The notes under the pieces are model-generated. The model was not told the origin of the DNA. It ran no database searches and saw nothing but the letters and a program-made list of their open reading frames with translations. A stretch of 37,026 nt of DNA, taken from assembly GCA_030605785.1 (NCBI GenBank), contig JAUWHS010000089.1, forward strand, positions 1 to 37,026, given 5' to 3'. Positions within the stretch are counted from its first letter, which is position 1; the number at the start of each line of letters is the position of its first letter. Positions 9,265-28,085 of this stretch are shown one piece after another. The position numbers and the translations under genes were made by a program. Source of the stretch: a bacterium (GTDB lineage Bacteria; Babelota; Babeliae; Babelales; JAUWHS01).

Positions 9265-9783
9265 TTATTCAATTATGTCGGATAAATTAGATAATTCGCA
9301 GTTTTTTTTGCCACCATGCGATCTAATAATTTTTGCTATTTTTAAACGTAATTTAGCCGTTTCATAATTATTATCAATTGAAAGAACAAAATCCAACGGC
9401 GTTGCTCCAACTTTATTTTTAACGTTTACATCAATTCCATAAAACAAACACAACTTTACACACCATTCTTCACACAAAAAAGCTGCCATGTGTAACAAAG
9501 TGTTTCCTTTGCTATTTACCAAATCCCTATTATTCGAAACAAATAATTTTAAAAATTTTCGAAAAAGGATAGGAAAAAATAATAGCTTTGCATCACCATT
9601 TATTACAAATGCTTCAAACGGTATACCTTCAAATTCTTTTCTTGTTAAATCAAACTCTTCATCTGTCAAAGATCGCTGATTGTCGTTTAACATAAAAACA
9701 ATCTCTTCTTTATCAACAGGGAAAATATTTATTGGAAATAAAACTGAGATAAAAAACAAAAATAAAATAAAAAAGATCTTCAT
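9265..9783 (-). CDS. Small secreted ankyrin-repeat protein
   Basis: Signal peptide MKIFFILFLFFISVLFPINIF. ANK consensus in GNTLLHMAAFLCEEWCVKLCLFYGIDVNVKNKVGATPLDFVL. Confidence 0.75.
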   Translation of the reverse strand: MKIFFILFLFFISVLFPINIFPVDKEEIVFMLNDNQRSLTDEEFDLTRKEFEGIPFEAFVINGDAKLLFFPILFRKFLKLFVSNNRDLVNSKGNTLLHMAAFLCEEWCVKLCLFYGIDVNVKNKVGATPLDFVLSIDNNYETAKLRLKIAKIIRSHGGKKNCELSNLSDIIE

Positions 9784-17258: not shown

Positions 17259-17333
17259 TGGAGCGGGAAACGGGATTCGAACCCGCGACCCTTGCCTTGG
17301 CAAGGCAATGCTCTACCACTGAGCTATTCCCGC
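17259..17333 (-). tRNA. tRNA-Gly (anticodon GCC), CCA encoded
   Basis: Reverse complement is GCGGGAATAGCTCAGTGGTAGAGCATTGCCTTGCCAAGGCAAGGGTCGCGGGTTCGAATCCCGTTTCCCGCTCCA. It folds as a cloverleaf with 7-bp acceptor, D arm GCTC/GAGC, anticodon stem TTGCC/GGCAA with loop TTGCCAA, T loop TTCGAAT and discriminator U. Confidence 0.95.
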
Positions 17334-22073: not shown

Positions 22074-22276
22074 CCAAGACCTACAGAAGCGCGCTAAGAT
22101 TTTTTAATTAAAGAAACAAAGGTTTAAAAATAAAAAAAGAAAGTCTGTGACTTTTCGTAAAAATTAATGTTTTTTTATTTATCATCCCCAAATACAAGTT
22201 TTTTTGTTCTCTTGACTCCAAACGGCAAAAAAAAGCACAATTAACTTTGTATAATCAAAAACTAAAAGGAGAAAAA

Positions 22277-24664
22277 ATGAAAAATAAACTAGTTATGATC
22301 TTTCTATTTTTATCAATAAATTTATTTCAAAATAAAATAGAAGCAGCAGAATTAACACAAGAAGAAAAAGAAAACAAATTACTTTTATTTCCATTCAATC
22401 TTGAACGAGCAAGATTACAAGCAACCCAGGAAGATCAAATCAAAAAGCTAAAAAAAGCAATAGTAACACTAAAACCTCTCTCAATTCCGGAAGAATTAAA
22501 AGAAACGGTTGTTAAAGGAAGTTTGATTAAATGGACATACGATACTAAACCTTGGGAAAATATAGAATCGACAGATAATATCAATGAAGAAAATGTTGAA
22601 ACTCTACTACAAGCTTCTCACCAATATTCAATTCCCAAAATTGCAGTCTTTTTTCAAAAACAAATACCAACTGAAGATCAATTTAAAGATAAAAATGACA
22701 AACTTTGCCCTTTAATTTTATCAACCGTAAAAGGTTGGTACATACCATCTTTAATACTTTTAAACAACACTAAAAACAAAGAATTTAAAATCTTTAACCT
22801 AGATATAAGCGCGCAAAATAAACTTGGCCAAACTGCTTTAAATCTTGGAATAGAAGAAGGGGATTTAAATAATAAAAATATAGTCAAAACCATCAAACTT
22901 CTAATAAATAATATTAAACCTATTAGCTTAAGAACCAAAAACAATGAAGGTAATACCGCCTTGCATTCAGCAATTAAAAGACTTGCGGGAGAATTTCCAA
23001 ATGCGCCCGAATTAAAAAAAGAGGGAATTAAAAACTTACTGGAAATAATTGAAATCTTAAAAATAAAAGGTGGTGATCGGTTATTAAAAGAGAAAAATAT
23101 AAAAGAAGAAACTCCATTTCAAATTTATAACGCGAAACAAGAAGAAATAGGAAAAAAATTAACTCCGGAACAAATAACAAAATTAAAAGAAATTTTAAAA
23201 CCGGAACTAGAAGAAATTATTGAGCCTAAAACTCCCGAAACAAAAACTCCCGAAACAAAAACAGTGGAAACAAAAACAGTGGAAACTGAAGCCCCTGGAA
23301 TAATTAAAACATTTCCGATTACAGAGCAGGAAACACTAAATAAATTTATCGAAGGAATCGCGAAAGCAAAAAAAGAAAGTAGTAACGCGAATAAAATCAA
23401 TATTATAAAGATGTTAGTACAGCAAACCGGTATACCTGAAGAGTTTCAGGGAGCCAAACTTGAAAAAGAAAATTGGGAAAACATAACCGATATTGATGGC
23501 ATAATTCAAAATGCGTTAGAGTTTTTATTATATATAAAACTGGAAAAATTAGATGATTATTTGAGCGCTAATTTCAAATGGAGTGATTGGTTAAAAGGTT
23601 CAATCATTACTCCATTAATTGAAGAAGGTAAATTAAATCTCAATGGCGCGCGACCAATTAATATAGACATCAAACTAAAAAGGAAAGAAAATGAAATTTT
23701 TGATGTATTAATAAAAATTAATCAAATAACTCCAATCAAAAACTTATCTGTAATTCATCAAAATAAATTTAAAAGAGTTCCGGATGCAATTTCAGATTTA
23801 AAAGAAATAGAAATATTAGATTTTTCAAAAAACAATATAAAAGAACTTCCTACTACAATCGCGAATTTAGAAAAGCTTCAAACTTTAAATCTTTCTAACA
23901 ATAAAAAACTGAATAAGATACCTAAAGAAATAATTGAATGGGGAAAACAGGAAGGACACTCTTTAAATATTAAAGATACAAAATTCATAGAGCTCCAAGA
24001 AAAAACCGAAAAAATAATTAAAGAGGCTATAAAAGCAATTGAAGAAGCTGAAAAAATAGGAGCTGATGTAAGTTCAGCAAAAGGCCAATTAAACGGGGAA
24101 GAAGGAGCTTTAAAGAAATTTAAAGATGGTGAATTCGCAGACGCTGAAATCTTGGCAAACACAGCTAAAGATAGCGCCTTAAAAGCGATAAAAGCCAAAC
24201 AAAAAGAGATAAAAGGAAAAGAGGAAGAAAAAGTTATCGAAAAAATAGAAATCCCGGAAAAACCCACTCCTGAAATAGCGCCAATAAAAGAAACAGAAAT
24301 AAAAAAAGAAATTGAAAAAGAAAAAACAAAGATAAAAGATAAAAAAGATAAGGAACCTATAAAAGAGGAACCTGAATGGAAACTCACAATTAAAGAACTC
24401 GAAGAAAGAGCAACCGCCGAAAAAATATTAAAAATAAACCAAAAAGAAAAAGAGGCTTTAATTGAATGGGCAAAAACTGAAATAAACAAACTTCCAAAAG
24501 ATAAAAGAACCGCAATAAGAAATTCTGTTAGAATTAGCGTTAGAAAAAGACGTGATATTGAATTTAAAAAAGCAATTGCGGAAACAATTTTCGCGACAAG
24601 TTTAATGTTCAAACAACTATATCATTCAAACCAAATTGACATTTTAAAAGAAGCGACTGAATAG
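22277..24664 (+). CDS. Secreted chimeric ankyrin-repeat + leucine-rich-repeat + Lys/Glu-rich coiled-coil protein
   Basis: I take the start at MKNKLVMIFLFLSINLF (RBS aaaaggagaaaaa). ANK: GQTALNLGIEEGD...NNEGNTALHSAIK. LRR: VPDAISDLKEIEILDFSKNNIKELPTTIANLEKLQTLNLSNNKKLNKIP. Also a KTPET/KTVET tandem repeat and a long K/E-rich C-terminal region. Confidence 0.8.
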   Translation: MKNKLVMIFLFLSINLFQNKIEAAELTQEEKENKLLLFPFNLERARLQATQEDQIKKLKKAIVTLKPLSIPEELKETVVKGSLIKWTYDTKPWENIESTDNINEENVETLLQASHQYSIPKIAVFFQKQIPTEDQFKDKNDKLCPLILSTVKGWYIPSLILLNNTKNKEFKIFNLDISAQNKLGQTALNLGIEEGDLNNKNIVKTIKLLINNIKPISLRTKNNEGNTALHSAIKRLAGEFPNAPELKKEGIKNLLEIIEILKIKGGDRLLKEKNIKEETPFQIYNAKQEEIGKKLTPEQITKLKEILKPELEEIIEPKTPETKTPETKTVETKTVETEAPGIIKTFPITEQETLNKFIEGIAKAKKESSNANKINIIKMLVQQTGIPEEFQGAKLEKENWENITDIDGIIQNALEFLLYIKLEKLDDYLSANFKWSDWLKGSIITPLIEEGKLNLNGARPINIDIKLKRKENEIFDVLIKINQITPIKNLSVIHQNKFKRVPDAISDLKEIEILDFSKNNIKELPTTIANLEKLQTLNLSNNKKLNKIPKEIIEWGKQEGHSLNIKDTKFIELQEKTEKIIKEAIKAIEEAEKIGADVSSAKGQLNGEEGALKKFKDGEFADAEILANTAKDSALKAIKAKQKEIKGKEEEKVIEKIEIPEKPTPEIAPIKETEIKKEIEKEKTKIKDKKDKEPIKEEPEWKLTIKELEERATAEKILKINQKEKEALIEWAKTEINKLPKDKRTAIRNSVRISVRKRRDIEFKKAIAETIFATSLMFKQLYHSNQIDILKEATE
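23228..23287 (+). repeat. In-frame 15-bp tandem repeat x4 (aaaactcccgaaaca x2, aaaacagtggaaaca/t x2) encoding KTPET-KTPET-KTVET-KTVET
   Basis: Read directly in the sequence. Copies 1 and 2 are identical, and copies 3 and 4 differ only in their last two bases (ca vs ct). Confidence 0.9.
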
Positions 24665-24673
24665 AAATAATTG

Positions 24674-24719
24674 AAAAAAAAATTAGCCTTTACCTAAATT
24701 GGTGAAGGCTAATTTTTTT
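24674..24719. terminator. Bidirectional rho-independent terminator shared by the convergent ANK-LRR gene and paralog A
   Basis: Stem ttagcctttacc (24683-24694) / ggtgaaggctaa (24701-24712) with one G-U pair. An A9 run lies upstream and a T7 run downstream. The T run overlaps the stop codon of the minus-strand gene. Confidence 0.8.
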
Positions 24720-27474
24720 AACTGACTTTTATGTCTCTATAATAAACATAAACATCCCAAGAACCAATTCCAACATATTCAAAGTTTTTAACCGGATAAG
24801 GATCTTGCCAATCTAAAATCTTTTTATCATCCTCATAAACAACAATATGTCCCTCATCTACACTGATTTTATATTTTCTAAATTTAAAACTTTGCCCTAA
24901 TTTTTTTAAAGTATCGGGATCTAAAACATCTGTTTTTTCCGGCGCGTCTGAATATTTATATTCCGCGACAGTCGTACCCAAACTTTTTGTTCTTATTACA
25001 GATGCTGTTCCTTTCCAACCACGAATTACAATTTCATAAATAGGTGTATTGCTATTTCTGACATCTGTTCGTTTTGGACTAAAACAAATATTTATATCAT
25101 TAAGAGTCTTTGCTTGAAATGAAATAGTCTTTTTTTGTTTTGAGGAATCTAACTTGATCCAAAAATATTCTCCATAAAGAGGAGGAATTGCTACGCCTTC
25201 TTCCGTTTTGTTGAATTTTTCAATCAAGCCCTGAGCAATTTGATTAGCGTTAAAATACCATTGTTCTTTTTGTTTTATTCCTTTTTCATCCGAGATATCA
25301 AATAGATATGGATTATCTTTCATATTGATTAATAATTTTAATAATTTTGTAGAATATTCATCATCCTGTTTTTTTCCAAATCTAGCATCATAAACAATAT
25401 CAAGGGCTCCAACTACTTTTTTTTGAATATTAGAACCCTCAAAAACTTTCGGATGCGTAGCCAAATCCGCAATTAATCGGTATGCCGCAAGAATTAAGCC
25501 CGGATCTTGTTGTAAATCTATTTTTGTTAAAACATCCTTAACTTTTTTTTGATTTATAACCGCTTGTTCCGGCGCGCCTACCTGCGCAAAAGAAGTTTTA
25601 CCAATACCTCCAACAAACGCGTAAGTCCCCGGCCCTTGAAAACCTAAACGTCTAATCCCTTTATCTTCCGCTTTTGCGGATAACATACTCCCAATTCCCT
25701 TGAAAACTTCACCGCCAACTCTCGCGAGAATCGCGCCTGGCCCCCTTCCCGTTCCGGCCCAAGCCATATCTTCTGAAATTCTAGTTGCCATTTGACCAAC
25801 AGCCTGCCCCATAAATGCGCCTCGTTGCATTGCCTCTTTTTGATGTGTTGGTTCCGGACCTTTTGTTTTTATAAATTTTGGAGTTCCATCAGATTCTATA
25901 TCTAACATTAAAAAATATTTCATATTTTTTTCTTCGACCTTTAAAAGAACATAATTTCTTTTAAAGATTAAATCTTTTATTCCAACGTTTGGTCTGTCCT
26001 GAAATAATTCATATAAAAAAGGACTTATAACAGTAAACGAATCCGGATACCTAAATGCTTGTTCTGTTTTTTGATAATATTCCTGATTTAAATCCATAAT
26101 CAGATCTACAGCCGGACCTATTTTTATATTTTTACAAAATATAGCCCCTTCTGTTTTAGTACCAAAACTTTCCGGTAAGCCAATAGCAATTTGGTTTGAA
26201 ATTTTTAATGGTTCAGGATCTTTCCATACAAACAGCGTGTTTTTACCAGGATTGCCTTTTCCAAATAAAATAAAACCATTATTAATTGATATCCAATAAC
26301 GATTAAATTTTTCCGGATCACTTAAAACAATTTGTTGATTCGCCGTAGACAAAACAGACGCGACAGCTTCACCTCTTCTTTTTAAAATTGTTCTTGAATT
26401 CGCGTCCGCCCCAATTAAAAATTCATATTCAAAATTAGCGCCAAAAGCAACTGTCAAACCGTTTTCACCTTTTGTTTCAAAAGAAAAACAACCTTGACCG
26501 GGAACACGCAATGGTGTTTGTAAAATTTCACAATTATTTTTTTTTGTTTTAACGGCAATTTCTTTTGACTCAAAATATGGTCGCCAGTCTTCTTGCGAAA
26601 CCATCGCGGGACTTAACTGAATATCTGAATATTGAACCGATAAAAGATTCGCGCCAAGCCCGACTCTATTTATTTTTAAACTTGCGTCATCATCAAAAAA
26701 AGACATAAAAACATTTTGACCCGCGAAACCTTGACCAACCAAAACTAGCCCATCATTAATACTAACCCAATAAGATTGAGGAATTCCCGGTTTTACCGCG
26801 GCAAATTTATTTTTTGTCGCTAAAACTTTATAAACAATTTCACTTTCTTTTATTTGCGGATTTCTTTTTAAAATGTAAGATTCCGTATTTTTATTTGCCC
26901 CTATAACAATTTTCCATAAAAATTTTGGCGCAATTTCATCAGAAAAAACAATAACTATCTCTCCTGACTCACTACTTATATCATCTTTCGCCGGATTTGC
27001 CTGAAATGAAATAGTTCCATTATTTATTTGACTTAAAGATTCATCAAGCCATGCATATCCTCCACTAACGGAAATAGATGAACCTGAAATAAGACCCTTA
27101 AGCTTTCTTTTACTAAAACCTTCAATTCTTATTTTTGATTTTTTAATTACAGGATCAAGATTTAAATCTTGTGTTTGATTCGAAGCAACAATTATTTTAT
27201 TTTCATATTTTTTTGTTTTTTGGTTTATATTTAAAAACTTTTTACCACTAATTTTTAAATCATTTGAGGTGTTATTTCTAATTCTTTCTAAAAATGCTAA
27301 ACCAAAATCTCTCAAGGTTTTTTCTCGCATTTTTTTTACACTCTTTACCTTAGTTGTTTCTGTTTTTTCTATTCTTGTAGCATGCGCAATAGTTGGTTTA
27401 ATTTCCTTTGAAAAAATAACAGAAAAATTAATCAACAAATTAAAAATAAATAAAATAAAATGAAAAAACTTCAT
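24718..27474 (-). CDS. Large secreted protein, paralog A (918 aa): three FAMeT-like (Methyltransf_FA-type) beta-sandwich repeats plus a central Gly-rich/helical region
   Basis: Signal peptide MKFFHFILFIFNLLINFSVIFS. Repeat signatures: FLWKIVIGANKNTESYILKR...YWVSINDGLVLVGQG...NRVGLG; FEYEFLIGADANSRTILKRRG...YWISINNGFILFGKG...FVWKDPEP; IYEIVIRGWKGTASVIRTK...ILDWQDPYPVKNFEYVGIGSW. Colinear with the 984-aa paralog. Confidence 0.8.
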   Translation of the reverse strand: MKFFHFILFIFNLLINFSVIFSKEIKPTIAHATRIEKTETTKVKSVKKMREKTLRDFGLAFLERIRNNTSNDLKISGKKFLNINQKTKKYENKIIVASNQTQDLNLDPVIKKSKIRIEGFSKRKLKGLISGSSISVSGGYAWLDESLSQINNGTISFQANPAKDDISSESGEIVIVFSDEIAPKFLWKIVIGANKNTESYILKRNPQIKESEIVYKVLATKNKFAAVKPGIPQSYWVSINDGLVLVGQGFAGQNVFMSFFDDDASLKINRVGLGANLLSVQYSDIQLSPAMVSQEDWRPYFESKEIAVKTKKNNCEILQTPLRVPGQGCFSFETKGENGLTVAFGANFEYEFLIGADANSRTILKRRGEAVASVLSTANQQIVLSDPEKFNRYWISINNGFILFGKGNPGKNTLFVWKDPEPLKISNQIAIGLPESFGTKTEGAIFCKNIKIGPAVDLIMDLNQEYYQKTEQAFRYPDSFTVISPFLYELFQDRPNVGIKDLIFKRNYVLLKVEEKNMKYFLMLDIESDGTPKFIKTKGPEPTHQKEAMQRGAFMGQAVGQMATRISEDMAWAGTGRGPGAILARVGGEVFKGIGSMLSAKAEDKGIRRLGFQGPGTYAFVGGIGKTSFAQVGAPEQAVINQKKVKDVLTKIDLQQDPGLILAAYRLIADLATHPKVFEGSNIQKKVVGALDIVYDARFGKKQDDEYSTKLLKLLINMKDNPYLFDISDEKGIKQKEQWYFNANQIAQGLIEKFNKTEEGVAIPPLYGEYFWIKLDSSKQKKTISFQAKTLNDINICFSPKRTDVRNSNTPIYEIVIRGWKGTASVIRTKSLGTTVAEYKYSDAPEKTDVLDPDTLKKLGQSFKFRKYKISVDEGHIVVYEDDKKILDWQDPYPVKNFEYVGIGSWDVYVYYRDIKVS

Positions 27475-27624
27475 ACTGGAAATCCCCTTTTTAATTTTTC
27501 AATTTCTTATTTTAGTTAAAACATGAAATTGTTGTTTATGTTTTCAATATTCTCAAGTAATTATAATTGGGTTTATCTTTATAAGTCTTTCTTGATATAA
27601 AATTTGACAAGCCCATAAAATGGG

Positions 27625-27672
27625 CGAAGGTAATTAGCCTCGGGTGAAGGTACTTTGTGCCGTAACCCGTGG
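27625..27672. repeat. Left arm of imperfect inverted repeat
   Basis: cgaaggtaattagcctcgggtgaAGGTACTTTGTGCcgtaacccgtgg. The reverse complement of the right arm is cgaaggtggttagcctcgggtgaGCTACGTAGTAGcgtaacccgtgg. Confidence 0.85.
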
Positions 27673-27841
27673 TACATAAAAACCAAATAATATTCGCCCC
27701 ATTTTATGTGGGCGGGGGAATTAATAAAATTTACAAATTCCCTCACCCCATTTCTCCTTCGCTAAAGCTTCGTAGAATCAATCCGCCGAAGTTTTAACGA
27801 AGGCTGAAAAACGGGGTGAAACTTGTACTATAACTAACTCT

Positions 27842-27888
27842 CCACGGGTTACGCTACTACGTAGCTCACCCGAGGCTAACCACCTTCG
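27842..27888. repeat. Right arm of imperfect inverted repeat
   Basis: ccacgggttacgctactacgtagctcacccgaggctaaccaccttcg. Pairs with 27625-27672 except for 2 mismatches and a ~12-13-nt central block. Confidence 0.85.
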
Positions 27889-28045
27889 TCCCTCGACTAG
27901 CTCGGGACTCGAGGCTTCGGGACTGGTCAAACAACTTAAAAAGTCAACATACAATTTCAAACATATTTCCAAAAGTCACAACTTGAGTTTTTATAAATAA
28001 AACAAAATAAGAGTCATTTTTTCAAGTGACATAATATTTTAACAT

Positions 28046-28085
28046 AAAACAAAGCCAGCTCATTTAAAAGAACCGGCTTTGTTTT
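28046..28085 (-). terminator. Probable terminator hairpin after paralog B
   Basis: aaaacaaagcc (28046-28056) pairs with ggctttgtttt (28075-28085). AT-rich outer stem with A/T runs on both sides, 44 nt past the stop of the 984-aa gene. Confidence 0.45.

Follow-up and report, generated by a model that had tools for sequence, protein, structure and literature searches.

The spacer between two large paralogous genes, A and B, on contig JAUWHS010000089.1 (assembly GCA_030605785.1) of a Dependentiae bacterium (GTDB lineage Babelota; Babeliae; Babelales; JAUWHS01) contains a GC-rich, densely self-complementary island in otherwise AT-rich DNA, and the question that it raises is whether such an island is an RNA, a leader of the downstream gene, or a mobile repeat. 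We analyzed this island within the whole 37,026-nt stretch, hereafter termed the window. The island is likely to be a REPIN-like doublet, that is, a pair of units of the repetitive extragenic palindrome (REP) type, which are associated with Y1 transposases and are newly seen here in a Dependentiae genome.

The contrast with the surrounding DNA was as sharp as had been estimated by hand, with computed G+C contents of 0.475 for positions 27611-27930 (47.5%) and 0.60 for 27841-27930 (60%), compared to 0.316 for the whole window and 0.16-0.30 for its remaining intergenic regions. The original prediction also described two long inverted arms (27625-27672 and 27842-27888), and these were recovered as 26 nt at 88% plus 25 nt at 80% complementarity by an inverted-repeat search and as 82% over 51 nt by blastn. 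Six of the seven small helices that it listed were exact complements at the positions given, the seventh (27695-27701 with 27709-27714) paired with a one-base bulge, and both proposed mini-hairpins (ggtac-ttt-gtgcc and gctac-tac-gtagc) were found in the island. The position that it gave, after the terminator of paralog B and about 130 nt upstream of paralog A, agreed with our measurement: on the minus strand, the island comes after the terminator at 28046-28085 and is separated by 131 nt from the ATG of paralog A at 27474. The minimum free energies of the island were -159.4 kcal/mol for the minus strand and -145.3 kcal/mol for the plus strand, with z-scores of -11.8 and -12.3, respectively, and none of 100 shuffled sequences folded equally well. 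The minus-strand fold contained 11 G.U pairs and the plus-strand fold 3. The Logan assembly of SRR14876856 had identical sequence, with one contig (L001) starting at window position 27739 and another (L002) ending at 27850; positions 27740-27849 were left unassembled, for which low coverage is the likely cause.

The island was found to consist of two convergent (tail-to-tail) units of about 110-190 nt each, which together occupy 27603-27931. The order within a unit is a variable hairpin (hp1), a linker of ~12 nt that ends in an invariant TAG, a second hairpin (hp2), a variable linker of 22-25 nt, and a third hairpin (hp3). The hp2 hairpin is a 33-36-nt imperfect palindrome of the form CCUCGGGU-GA(A)-(variable stem-loop)-GUA-ACCCGUGG, in which the outer stem of 8 bp, CCUCGGGU/ACCCGUGG, includes a U.U mismatch that is conserved; inside this stem are the GA(A)/GUA internal loop and an inner stem-loop that varies freely. 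The stem mismatch and the internal loop are shared by the two window units and 12 further units. Each window arm is a 34-35-nt imperfect palindrome of this kind, CCTCGGGTGA-(5-bp stem, 3-nt loop)-GTAACCCGTGG. The parts of the element are listed here by window position, with bit scores and E values from a covariance model built without the window units (model R2, below).

27603-27680, plus strand: unit 1, hp1-linker-hp2 (R2, 60.9 bits, E = 5.5e-16; included in alignments A2 and A4)
27611-27625, plus strand: unit 1 hp1, GCCCAT-AAA-ATGGGC
27635-27637, plus strand: invariant TAG of unit 1, at the end of the linker GAAGGTAAT
27638-27672, plus strand: unit 1 hp2, CCTCGGGT-GAA-GGTAC-TTT-GTGCC-GTA-ACCCGTGG
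27673-27714, plus strand: unit 1 tail, a 22-nt A/U-rich variable linker (27673-27694) and then hp3
27695-27714, plus strand: unit 1 hp3, CGCCCCA-TTTTA-TGTGGGCG
27716-27742, no strand assigned: central spacer hairpin GGGAATT-N13-AATTCCC, an exact complement and a component of the computed fold, at the junction between the convergent units
27744-27818, minus strand: unit 2 tail, a long nested hairpin in the hp3 position, CACCCC...GGGGTG around CCTTCG/CGAAGG and CTTCG/CGAAG
27819-27841, minus strand: unit 2 linker of 23 nt between hp2 and the tail hairpin, placed relative to hp2 as in the family
27834-27931, minus strand (sense strand of both flanking genes): unit 2, hp1-linker-hp2 (R2, 37.4 bits, E = 7.9e-9; included in A4)
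27923-27888, minus strand: unit 2 hp1, GTCCC...GGGAC around CCTCGA/TCGAGG
27878-27876, minus strand: TAG of unit 2, at the end of the linker GAAGGTGGT
27875-27842, minus strand: unit 2 hp2, CCTCGGGT-GA-GCTAC-GTA-GTAGC-GTA-ACCCGTGG

The long-range arms are the linker and hp2 modules of the two convergent units, and the helices between the arms are the hp3 hairpins together with one junction hairpin. The mini-hairpins that had been regarded as compensatory are the variable inner stem-loop of hp2, which also covaries in other genomes, and the four-way junction that had been proposed for the arms is more readily interpreted as a pair of independent local hairpins, with one in each unit. Because the two units are inverted copies, each strand can pair with itself, and this accounts for both the long-range arms and the extreme folding energy. 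The symmetry of the two strands and the long-range helix, being consequences of two tail-to-tail inverted copies, provide no evidence that the island is one folded RNA.

Units of the same build are dispersed in other genomes. A pattern scan for the 21 conserved bases of hp2, with a variable middle, across 185,579 species-representative genomes identified eight loci, compared to about 1.3 expected by chance according to our own arithmetic. These were on six contigs of the metagenome-assembled genome (MAG) "Lentisphaeria bacterium UBA2565," one contig of GCA_043818275.1 (a Dependentiae MAG in which the syntenic locus L004, discussed below, is also located), and one contig of an "uncultured Bacteroides sp." MAG (L013). 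The six UBA2565 contigs held eight units, two of them truncated; GCA_043818275.1 had two sites on one 17-kb contig, and the Bacteroides contig had three units at two sites. All scan matches possessed the hp1-linker-TAG-hp2-linker-hp3 build. A 22-25-nt linker followed by a GC-rich hairpin was present in six UBA2565 units and in one Bacteroides unit (L013a), with a linker sequence that differed in every copy. A covariance model extending from hp1 to hp2 recognized 14 clear units plus a short-form doublet whose hp2 is without the inner stem. Model R2, built from non-window units only, made exactly two matches in the window (plus strand, 27603-27680; minus strand, 27931-27834) and found nothing there beyond these two units. 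The expectation that dispersed copies would identify a repeat element was thus borne out in the genomes of relatives, whereas the 37 kb of the window hold one site.

Other properties were shared across the family. The TAG directly 5' of hp2 was invariant in all 12 units of alignment A2, and the base before it in the A4 units was G in 4, A in 3, T in 6, and C in 1. All 15 mapped units were located between open reading frames, often 4-30 nt from a gene end. Doublets were found in the window, L013, L009, and L010 (short form); the four were all convergent, and their spacers differed in sequence but were all hairpin-forming. The two window units share TTTGAC(A/C)AG...CGAAGGT(AA/GG)TTAG and the L013 units share TTAATAGTAG, and within each of these two doublets the units were each other's closest match, as expected if the doublet is the evolving entity. 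Two further arrangements were seen. In the Lentisphaeria MAG (L007, 3525-3699), two units lie in direct tandem, with the hp1 of the second replacing the hp3 of the first. In the related Dependentiae MAG (L010, 3196-3265), a single long-form unit precedes a longer, A-rich linker of 33 nt and a strong bidirectional intrinsic terminator (GCGCCCGCCCCTCGA...TCGGGGCGGGCGC, with a T run), and the unit plus terminator looks like a free-standing small-RNA gene.

Structural constraint was assessed in alignments with the window units (A4) and without them (A6), both of which were fitted to the model, a procedure that favors the structure. In A6, two-sided changes were observed at all six pairs of hp1, at two of the four pairs of the hp2 inner stem, and at one pair of the hp2 outer stem (C-G to U-A). 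Paired cells made up 87.6% of the total, compared to 34-52% when the partners were slid, and 0 of 500 shuffles reached the covariation score. The counts for hp1 and the inner stem were the same in A4, and the outer stem showed no covariation in that alignment. Across the family helices, G.U combinations outnumbered A.C combinations by 7 to 3; the strand asymmetry of G.U pairs, in the window and in the family, is only suggestive. The covariation does not single out RNA because a single-stranded DNA (ssDNA) hairpin that serves as the substrate of a Y1 transposase predicts it equally.

The element is absent from the orthologous site in the two nearest relatives. Paralog A had only two relatives in a collection of 5.8 billion proteins, and the gene order DeoC-SLOG-B-A-...-GroES-GroEL was kept in the syntenic loci L003 and L004. 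The few homologs of this paralog belong to unclassified MAGs and "Candidatus Babeliales," which places the source of the window in the Dependentiae (TM6). The features that flank the element in the window are the following.

24718-27474, minus strand: paralog A, 918 aa, Methyltransf_FA/DM9 domains, downstream of the island
27512-27602, no strand assigned: AT-rich flank on the gene-A side, within the ~474-bp stretch without an L003 counterpart, partly complementary to 27936-27984
27932-27985, no strand assigned: AT-rich flank on the gene-B side, within the stretch without an L003 counterpart
27986-28025, minus strand: promoter-like block CTTGAAAA...CTTATTTTGTTTTATTTATAAAA, upstream of the insertion, common to L003 and looser in L004
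28046-28085, no strand assigned: bidirectional intrinsic terminator hairpin after paralog B, an inverted repeat also present in L003
28129-31083, minus strand: paralog B, 984 aa, Methyltransf_FA/DM9 domains, upstream of the island

The B-A spacer measures 229 nt in L003, where the A protein is 75% identical, and 130 nt in L004, where it is 45% identical. The window spacer aligned well with that of L003 through the terminator and the promoter-like block (CTTGAAAA...TTTATTTATAAAA), no counterpart was present for ~474 bp (about 27512-27985), and the alignment picked up again just before the ribosome-binding site of paralog A. The island was missing from the orthologous spacer in L003 and L004, and R2 had no match in either locus. 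Since the spacer is conserved on both sides of the gap and neither relative has the island, these results indicate a lineage-specific insertion or, less parsimoniously, two independent losses. The two AT-rich flanks are mutually complementary (e.g., 27524-27547 with 27936-27959) and neither gave a match to the family model; they may represent outer portions of the element that are specific to this lineage. A 5-bp TAAAA at both edges was rejected as a target-site duplication because it is meaningless in DNA this AT-rich; Y1 transposition produces no target-site duplications. The promoter-like block, of the form CTTGAAAA-N9/10-(C)TTATTTTGTTTT(T)ATTTA, is located at 27986-28025 of the window on the minus strand, at about 1000-1044 in L003, and at about 9930-9975 in L004. 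It was kept in the three genomes though the A proteins are only 45-75% identical, and it is probably the promoter or an operator of gene A in Dependentiae.

Units of the family are also associated with Y1 transposase genes. On the Bacteroides contig, positions 566-1009 of L013 encode a Y1_Tnp protein (Pfam E = 4.8e-26; 78 bits with the NCBIfam IS200/IS605 model) located 172 nt from the L013 doublet. Besides itself, this protein had 12 homologs in the collection, and the contigs of seven were fetched. The Y1 genes at L018 763-1209, L019 596-1042, and L021 1057-1500 were bounded on both sides by inverted units of the family build, comprising hp1, a ~12-nt linker ending in TAA or TAG, and a CCNCGGG...CCCGNGG hairpin, and the sequence TAGCCACGGGTTTCAACCCGTGG in L019 was identical to that of a short unit in L009. 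The transposases of L014-L016 were likewise located between inverted hairpin-rich repeats, but of other sequence. Each fetched contig contained one transposase gene amid housekeeping genes. The L018 and L019 transposases are similar, and in these two loci from different metagenomes the same gene order was observed (L018 763-2261 and L019 596-2079): Y1 transposase, DAHP_synth_1 (KdsA-like), and SNF2 helicase. The shared neighbors hint at vertical inheritance, as would be expected of a single-copy REP-associated tyrosine transposase (RAYT) rather than a mobile insertion sequence (IS). No Y1_Tnp gene was present among the genes of the window. The JGI name "RayT" for protein P0139, which we take to be a label for the whole Y1 family, does not discriminate between a RAYT and an IS transposase. 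The L013 gene itself is bracketed at 436-543 and 1002-1110 by nested inverted arrays of three small CGTAG-containing hairpins (GGCGC-GTA-GCGCC, CCCCATCCGC...GCGGAGGGTGGGG, and GGGTC-GTA-GACCC); these arrays are a second repeat type, distinct from the CCUCGGGU core 70 nt further out.

The systems closest to this arrangement are the REPs, bacterial interspersed mosaic elements (BIMEs), and REPINs that occur with RAYT (TnpA_REP) Y1 transposases in E. coli and Pseudomonas (PMC3116915, PMC3337134, PMC3479197, PMC5581495). In a REPIN, two REPs in inverted orientation are joined by a spacer whose sequence varies from copy to copy but which retains the ability to form a hairpin (PMC3337134). TnpA_REP binds the E. 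coli REP, an imperfect hairpin with a conserved tetranucleotide at its 5' foot and an internal mismatch that is required for binding (PMC3479197). RAYT groups are spread across many bacterial classes (PMC5581495). The elements described here resemble REPs and REPINs as extragenic GC-rich imperfect palindromes with an internal stem mismatch and a 5' foot motif (GTAG in REPs, NTAG here), as inverted doublets that fold into long hairpins around variable but hairpin-forming spacers, in being present or absent at orthologous sites, and in flanking Y1 HUH transposase genes in inverted orientation. They differ in that the core has an inserted variable stem-loop (long form) or is without it (short form), the doublets are larger (90-170 nt between cores), the host belongs to the Dependentiae (TM6), and the associated transposases are IS200-like in NCBIfam. 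The ends of IS200/IS605 elements bear hairpins in direct orientation on the active strand, and their insertion occurs beside a fixed tetra- or pentanucleotide. The likeness to these ends and to palindrome-associated transposable elements (PATEs) lies in subterminal imperfect hairpins that are read as ssDNA by a Y1 transposase and in small non-coding derivatives, whereas the units examined here are inverted, and a fixed target is not definable from a single insertion. Rickettsia palindromic elements are about 100-150 bp in length, are often in frame within coding genes, and have no known transposase partner. By description, not by sequence, the island is akin to them as a palindromic, GC-richer repeat of the type scattered in AT-rich intracellular genomes, an analogy that the original prediction had already drawn.

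Several observations weigh against a REPIN-like doublet. The conserved foot is NTAG and not strictly GTAG, and the unit is bipartite: an additional covarying hairpin is located about 12 nt 5' of the core, a feature not described for REPs. At 329 bp, with 169 nt between the cores, the element exceeds the usual size of a REPIN (about 90-150 bp in Pseudomonas), and the ~474-bp stretch that is missing from L003 exceeds the two units by about 145 bp, leaving the extra AT-rich flanks unexplained. The 37-kb window has a single island site. The L013 transposase is tied to the CCUCGGGU core by adjacency only, since its immediate flanks are different hairpins. The 21-nt core is identical in Dependentiae, Lentisphaeria, and Bacteroides MAGs, which are assigned to three phyla; this is unusual because REP-RAYT systems are described as lineage-specific. 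Finally, the 11 versus 3 asymmetry of G.U pairs and the terminator after the L010 unit leave room for a role at the level of RNA.

The last of these points leads to the alternative that fares best, although we consider it unlikely: the units would be mainly RNA modules, with hp2 as a protein-binding RNA, and would act as cis stabilizers, terminators, translation regulators, or small RNAs whose function resides in the variable 22-25-nt linker; dispersal of the units by a transposase would be secondary or ancient. Such a role would fit the retention of the hp2 sequence in different phyla alongside covariation of hp1 and the inner stem, and the conservation of linker length but not linker sequence. 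Most units that could be judged are co-oriented with the neighboring gene, and several directly follow a stop codon; yet one unit of every doublet is always antisense. The window G.U pairs favor the gene-sense strand (11 versus 3) and a strong intrinsic terminator comes after the L010 unit, as in a small-RNA gene, but the family-wide asymmetry of G.U versus A.C is weak (7 versus 3), and hairpin covariation is equally expected of a Y1 ssDNA substrate. Moreover, units flank transposase genes as REPs flank RAYTs, and the island is missing at this site in the two nearest relatives. A related proposal, that hp2 is a conserved RNA or ssDNA protein-binding module and the 22-25-nt linker a locus-specific functional segment (e.g., guide- or seed-like), appears distinctly improbable to us; if true, the units would constitute a novel class of modular elements, with regulatory or guide functions, that employ a RAYT-like enzyme.

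It is very unlikely, in our estimation, that the doublet is a miniature derivative (of the PATE or miniature inverted-repeat transposable element type) of an active IS200/IS605 element instead of a REPIN served by a single-copy domesticated RAYT. The L013 protein does fall within the IS200/IS605 transposase model of NCBIfam, and its catalytic region (W-x-x-E-Y-F-A-E-T-V-S) is IS200-like by eye. The orientation of the units, inverted both around the transposase genes and in doublets, contrasts with the direct-orientation hairpins at IS ends, and the single transposase gene per fetched contig and the conserved KdsA-like and SNF2 neighbors in L018 and L019 also argue against an active IS.

The original prediction had offered an independent non-coding RNA or a long leader or riboswitch of paralog A, and neither is supported as stated, there being no syntenic conservation. 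The extreme folding z-scores, the GC enrichment in an AT-rich genome, the placement between the promoter-like block and the start of A, and the finding that the two long-arm "mismatches" are G.U pairs on the gene-sense strand would suit one ~320-nt structured RNA or riboswitch-like leader with a long multi-branched fold. Such an RNA is extremely unlikely: its absence from the spacer of both nearest relatives largely refutes it, each half alone matches a repeat family that occurs elsewhere as single units, no Rfam family was matched, and the inverted duplication of units explains the long-range pairing. The further suggestion of that prediction, a nested palindromic mobile element, was essentially right, in that the units are dispersed elsewhere, associated with Y1 transposases, and absent from the orthologous spacer. 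We give almost no credence to an inverton, in which the arms would be recombinase targets and the ~170-bp segment between them would flip to control A. In its favor, inverted repeats surround a short segment upstream of a putative effector gene, and in an independent assembly two contigs break off within the island (at 27739 and 27850). However, these contigs are short (only 3.5-4.5 kb) and also terminate in ordinary coding sequence, as fits low coverage; moreover, the break points do not match both arm edges, no recombinase gene is nearby, and units elsewhere also occur as singlets and tandems. The contig breaks were likewise set aside as a sign of a repeat or inversion because contigs that also end in unique coding DNA are uninformative.

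Searches for known RNAs agreed with the earlier failure to match the island to any family. With Rfam 15 at the gathering score, only a tRNA-Gly was found in the window, and at E ≤ 10 only chance-level matches were found in the island; units of the other loci had no Rfam match. ARAGORN identified the same tRNA-Gly and no tmRNA in the window. Weak symmetric matches to Acido-Lenti-1 (about 12 bits) did not recur in the UBA2565 units, and the hairpin at 28046-28085 matched only the terminator portion of the Thr_leader model. Likeness to RNase P, signal recognition particle RNA, attC, and CIRCE was rejected by inspection together with the Rfam result. A k-turn reading of the hp2 loop was also rejected. 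The GA(A)/GUA loop may resemble a sarcin-ricin or loop-E motif. BLAST against phage and plasmid collections found no similar DNA, the first arm pattern (CGAAGGTRRTTAGCCTCGGGTGA) had 0 matches in genome contigs, and the 21-nt version of the arm pattern and the hp2 pattern each had 0 matches in viral contigs. In metagenome contigs, the 21-nt arm pattern made one chance match inside an apparent Rho gene (L005). A search with leucine-rich repeat (LRR) proteins, aimed at further DNA from the genome of the window, returned unrelated LRR proteins only.

The genes of the window encode AlaS, ClpB, MnmE, GroEL, ankyrin and LRR proteins, and the two DM9 paralogs, and its only RNA gene according to Rfam and ARAGORN is that for tRNA-Gly(GCC) (17259-17333, minus strand). 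Eukaryote-like repeat proteins surround the DM9 paralogs, namely ankyrin plus LRR at 22247-24664, a 1047-aa LRR protein at 32957-36100, and a small ankyrin protein at 9265-9783; the 1047-aa protein scores against the Xanthomonas XopAC/XopAE/XopL effector models. This setting fits an effector-rich region of an intracellular bacterium. Each DM9 paralog has a 200-250-nt coding stretch of 46-56% GC (25551-25800 and 29251-29450) in a gene of ~31% GC, and the two stretches presumably encode the same protein segment.

On these grounds we propose for the REPIN-like doublet that the TAG and the adjoining hairpin module would form the ssDNA recognition and cleavage site of a Y1 HUH transposase (IS200-like, RAYT-type), and that a transposase encoded elsewhere in the genome may mobilize or maintain the doublets. 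The element would have entered the B-A spacer in this lineage only, between the promoter-like block and the ribosome-binding site of paralog A. If that block is used, unit 2 would lie within the leader of paralog A, and, if transcribed, very stable stem-loops in this 5' leader may alter mRNA stability, termination, or translation. REPs in enterobacteria affect these same processes.

A GC-rich structured island of the kind that is flagged in screens for new RNAs is here a repeat doublet and, for such a screen, a false positive. To our knowledge, REP/REPIN-type elements have not been described in Dependentiae, and a limited literature search found nothing relevant; the present doublet extends them to this phylum of intracellular parasites with small genomes. 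It also defines a bipartite unit type, made up of an accessory hairpin and a TAG-footed core with or without an inserted stem-loop, that is tied to an IS200-like Y1 clade. The 21-nt core that is common to three phyla is awkward for a strictly lineage-specific, vertically inherited view of REPIN-RAYT systems and could be used to study their horizontal movement or deep conservation. For the bacterium itself, insertion between the promoter-like block and the start of gene A, a putative eukaryote-like effector, may have changed the expression of that gene.

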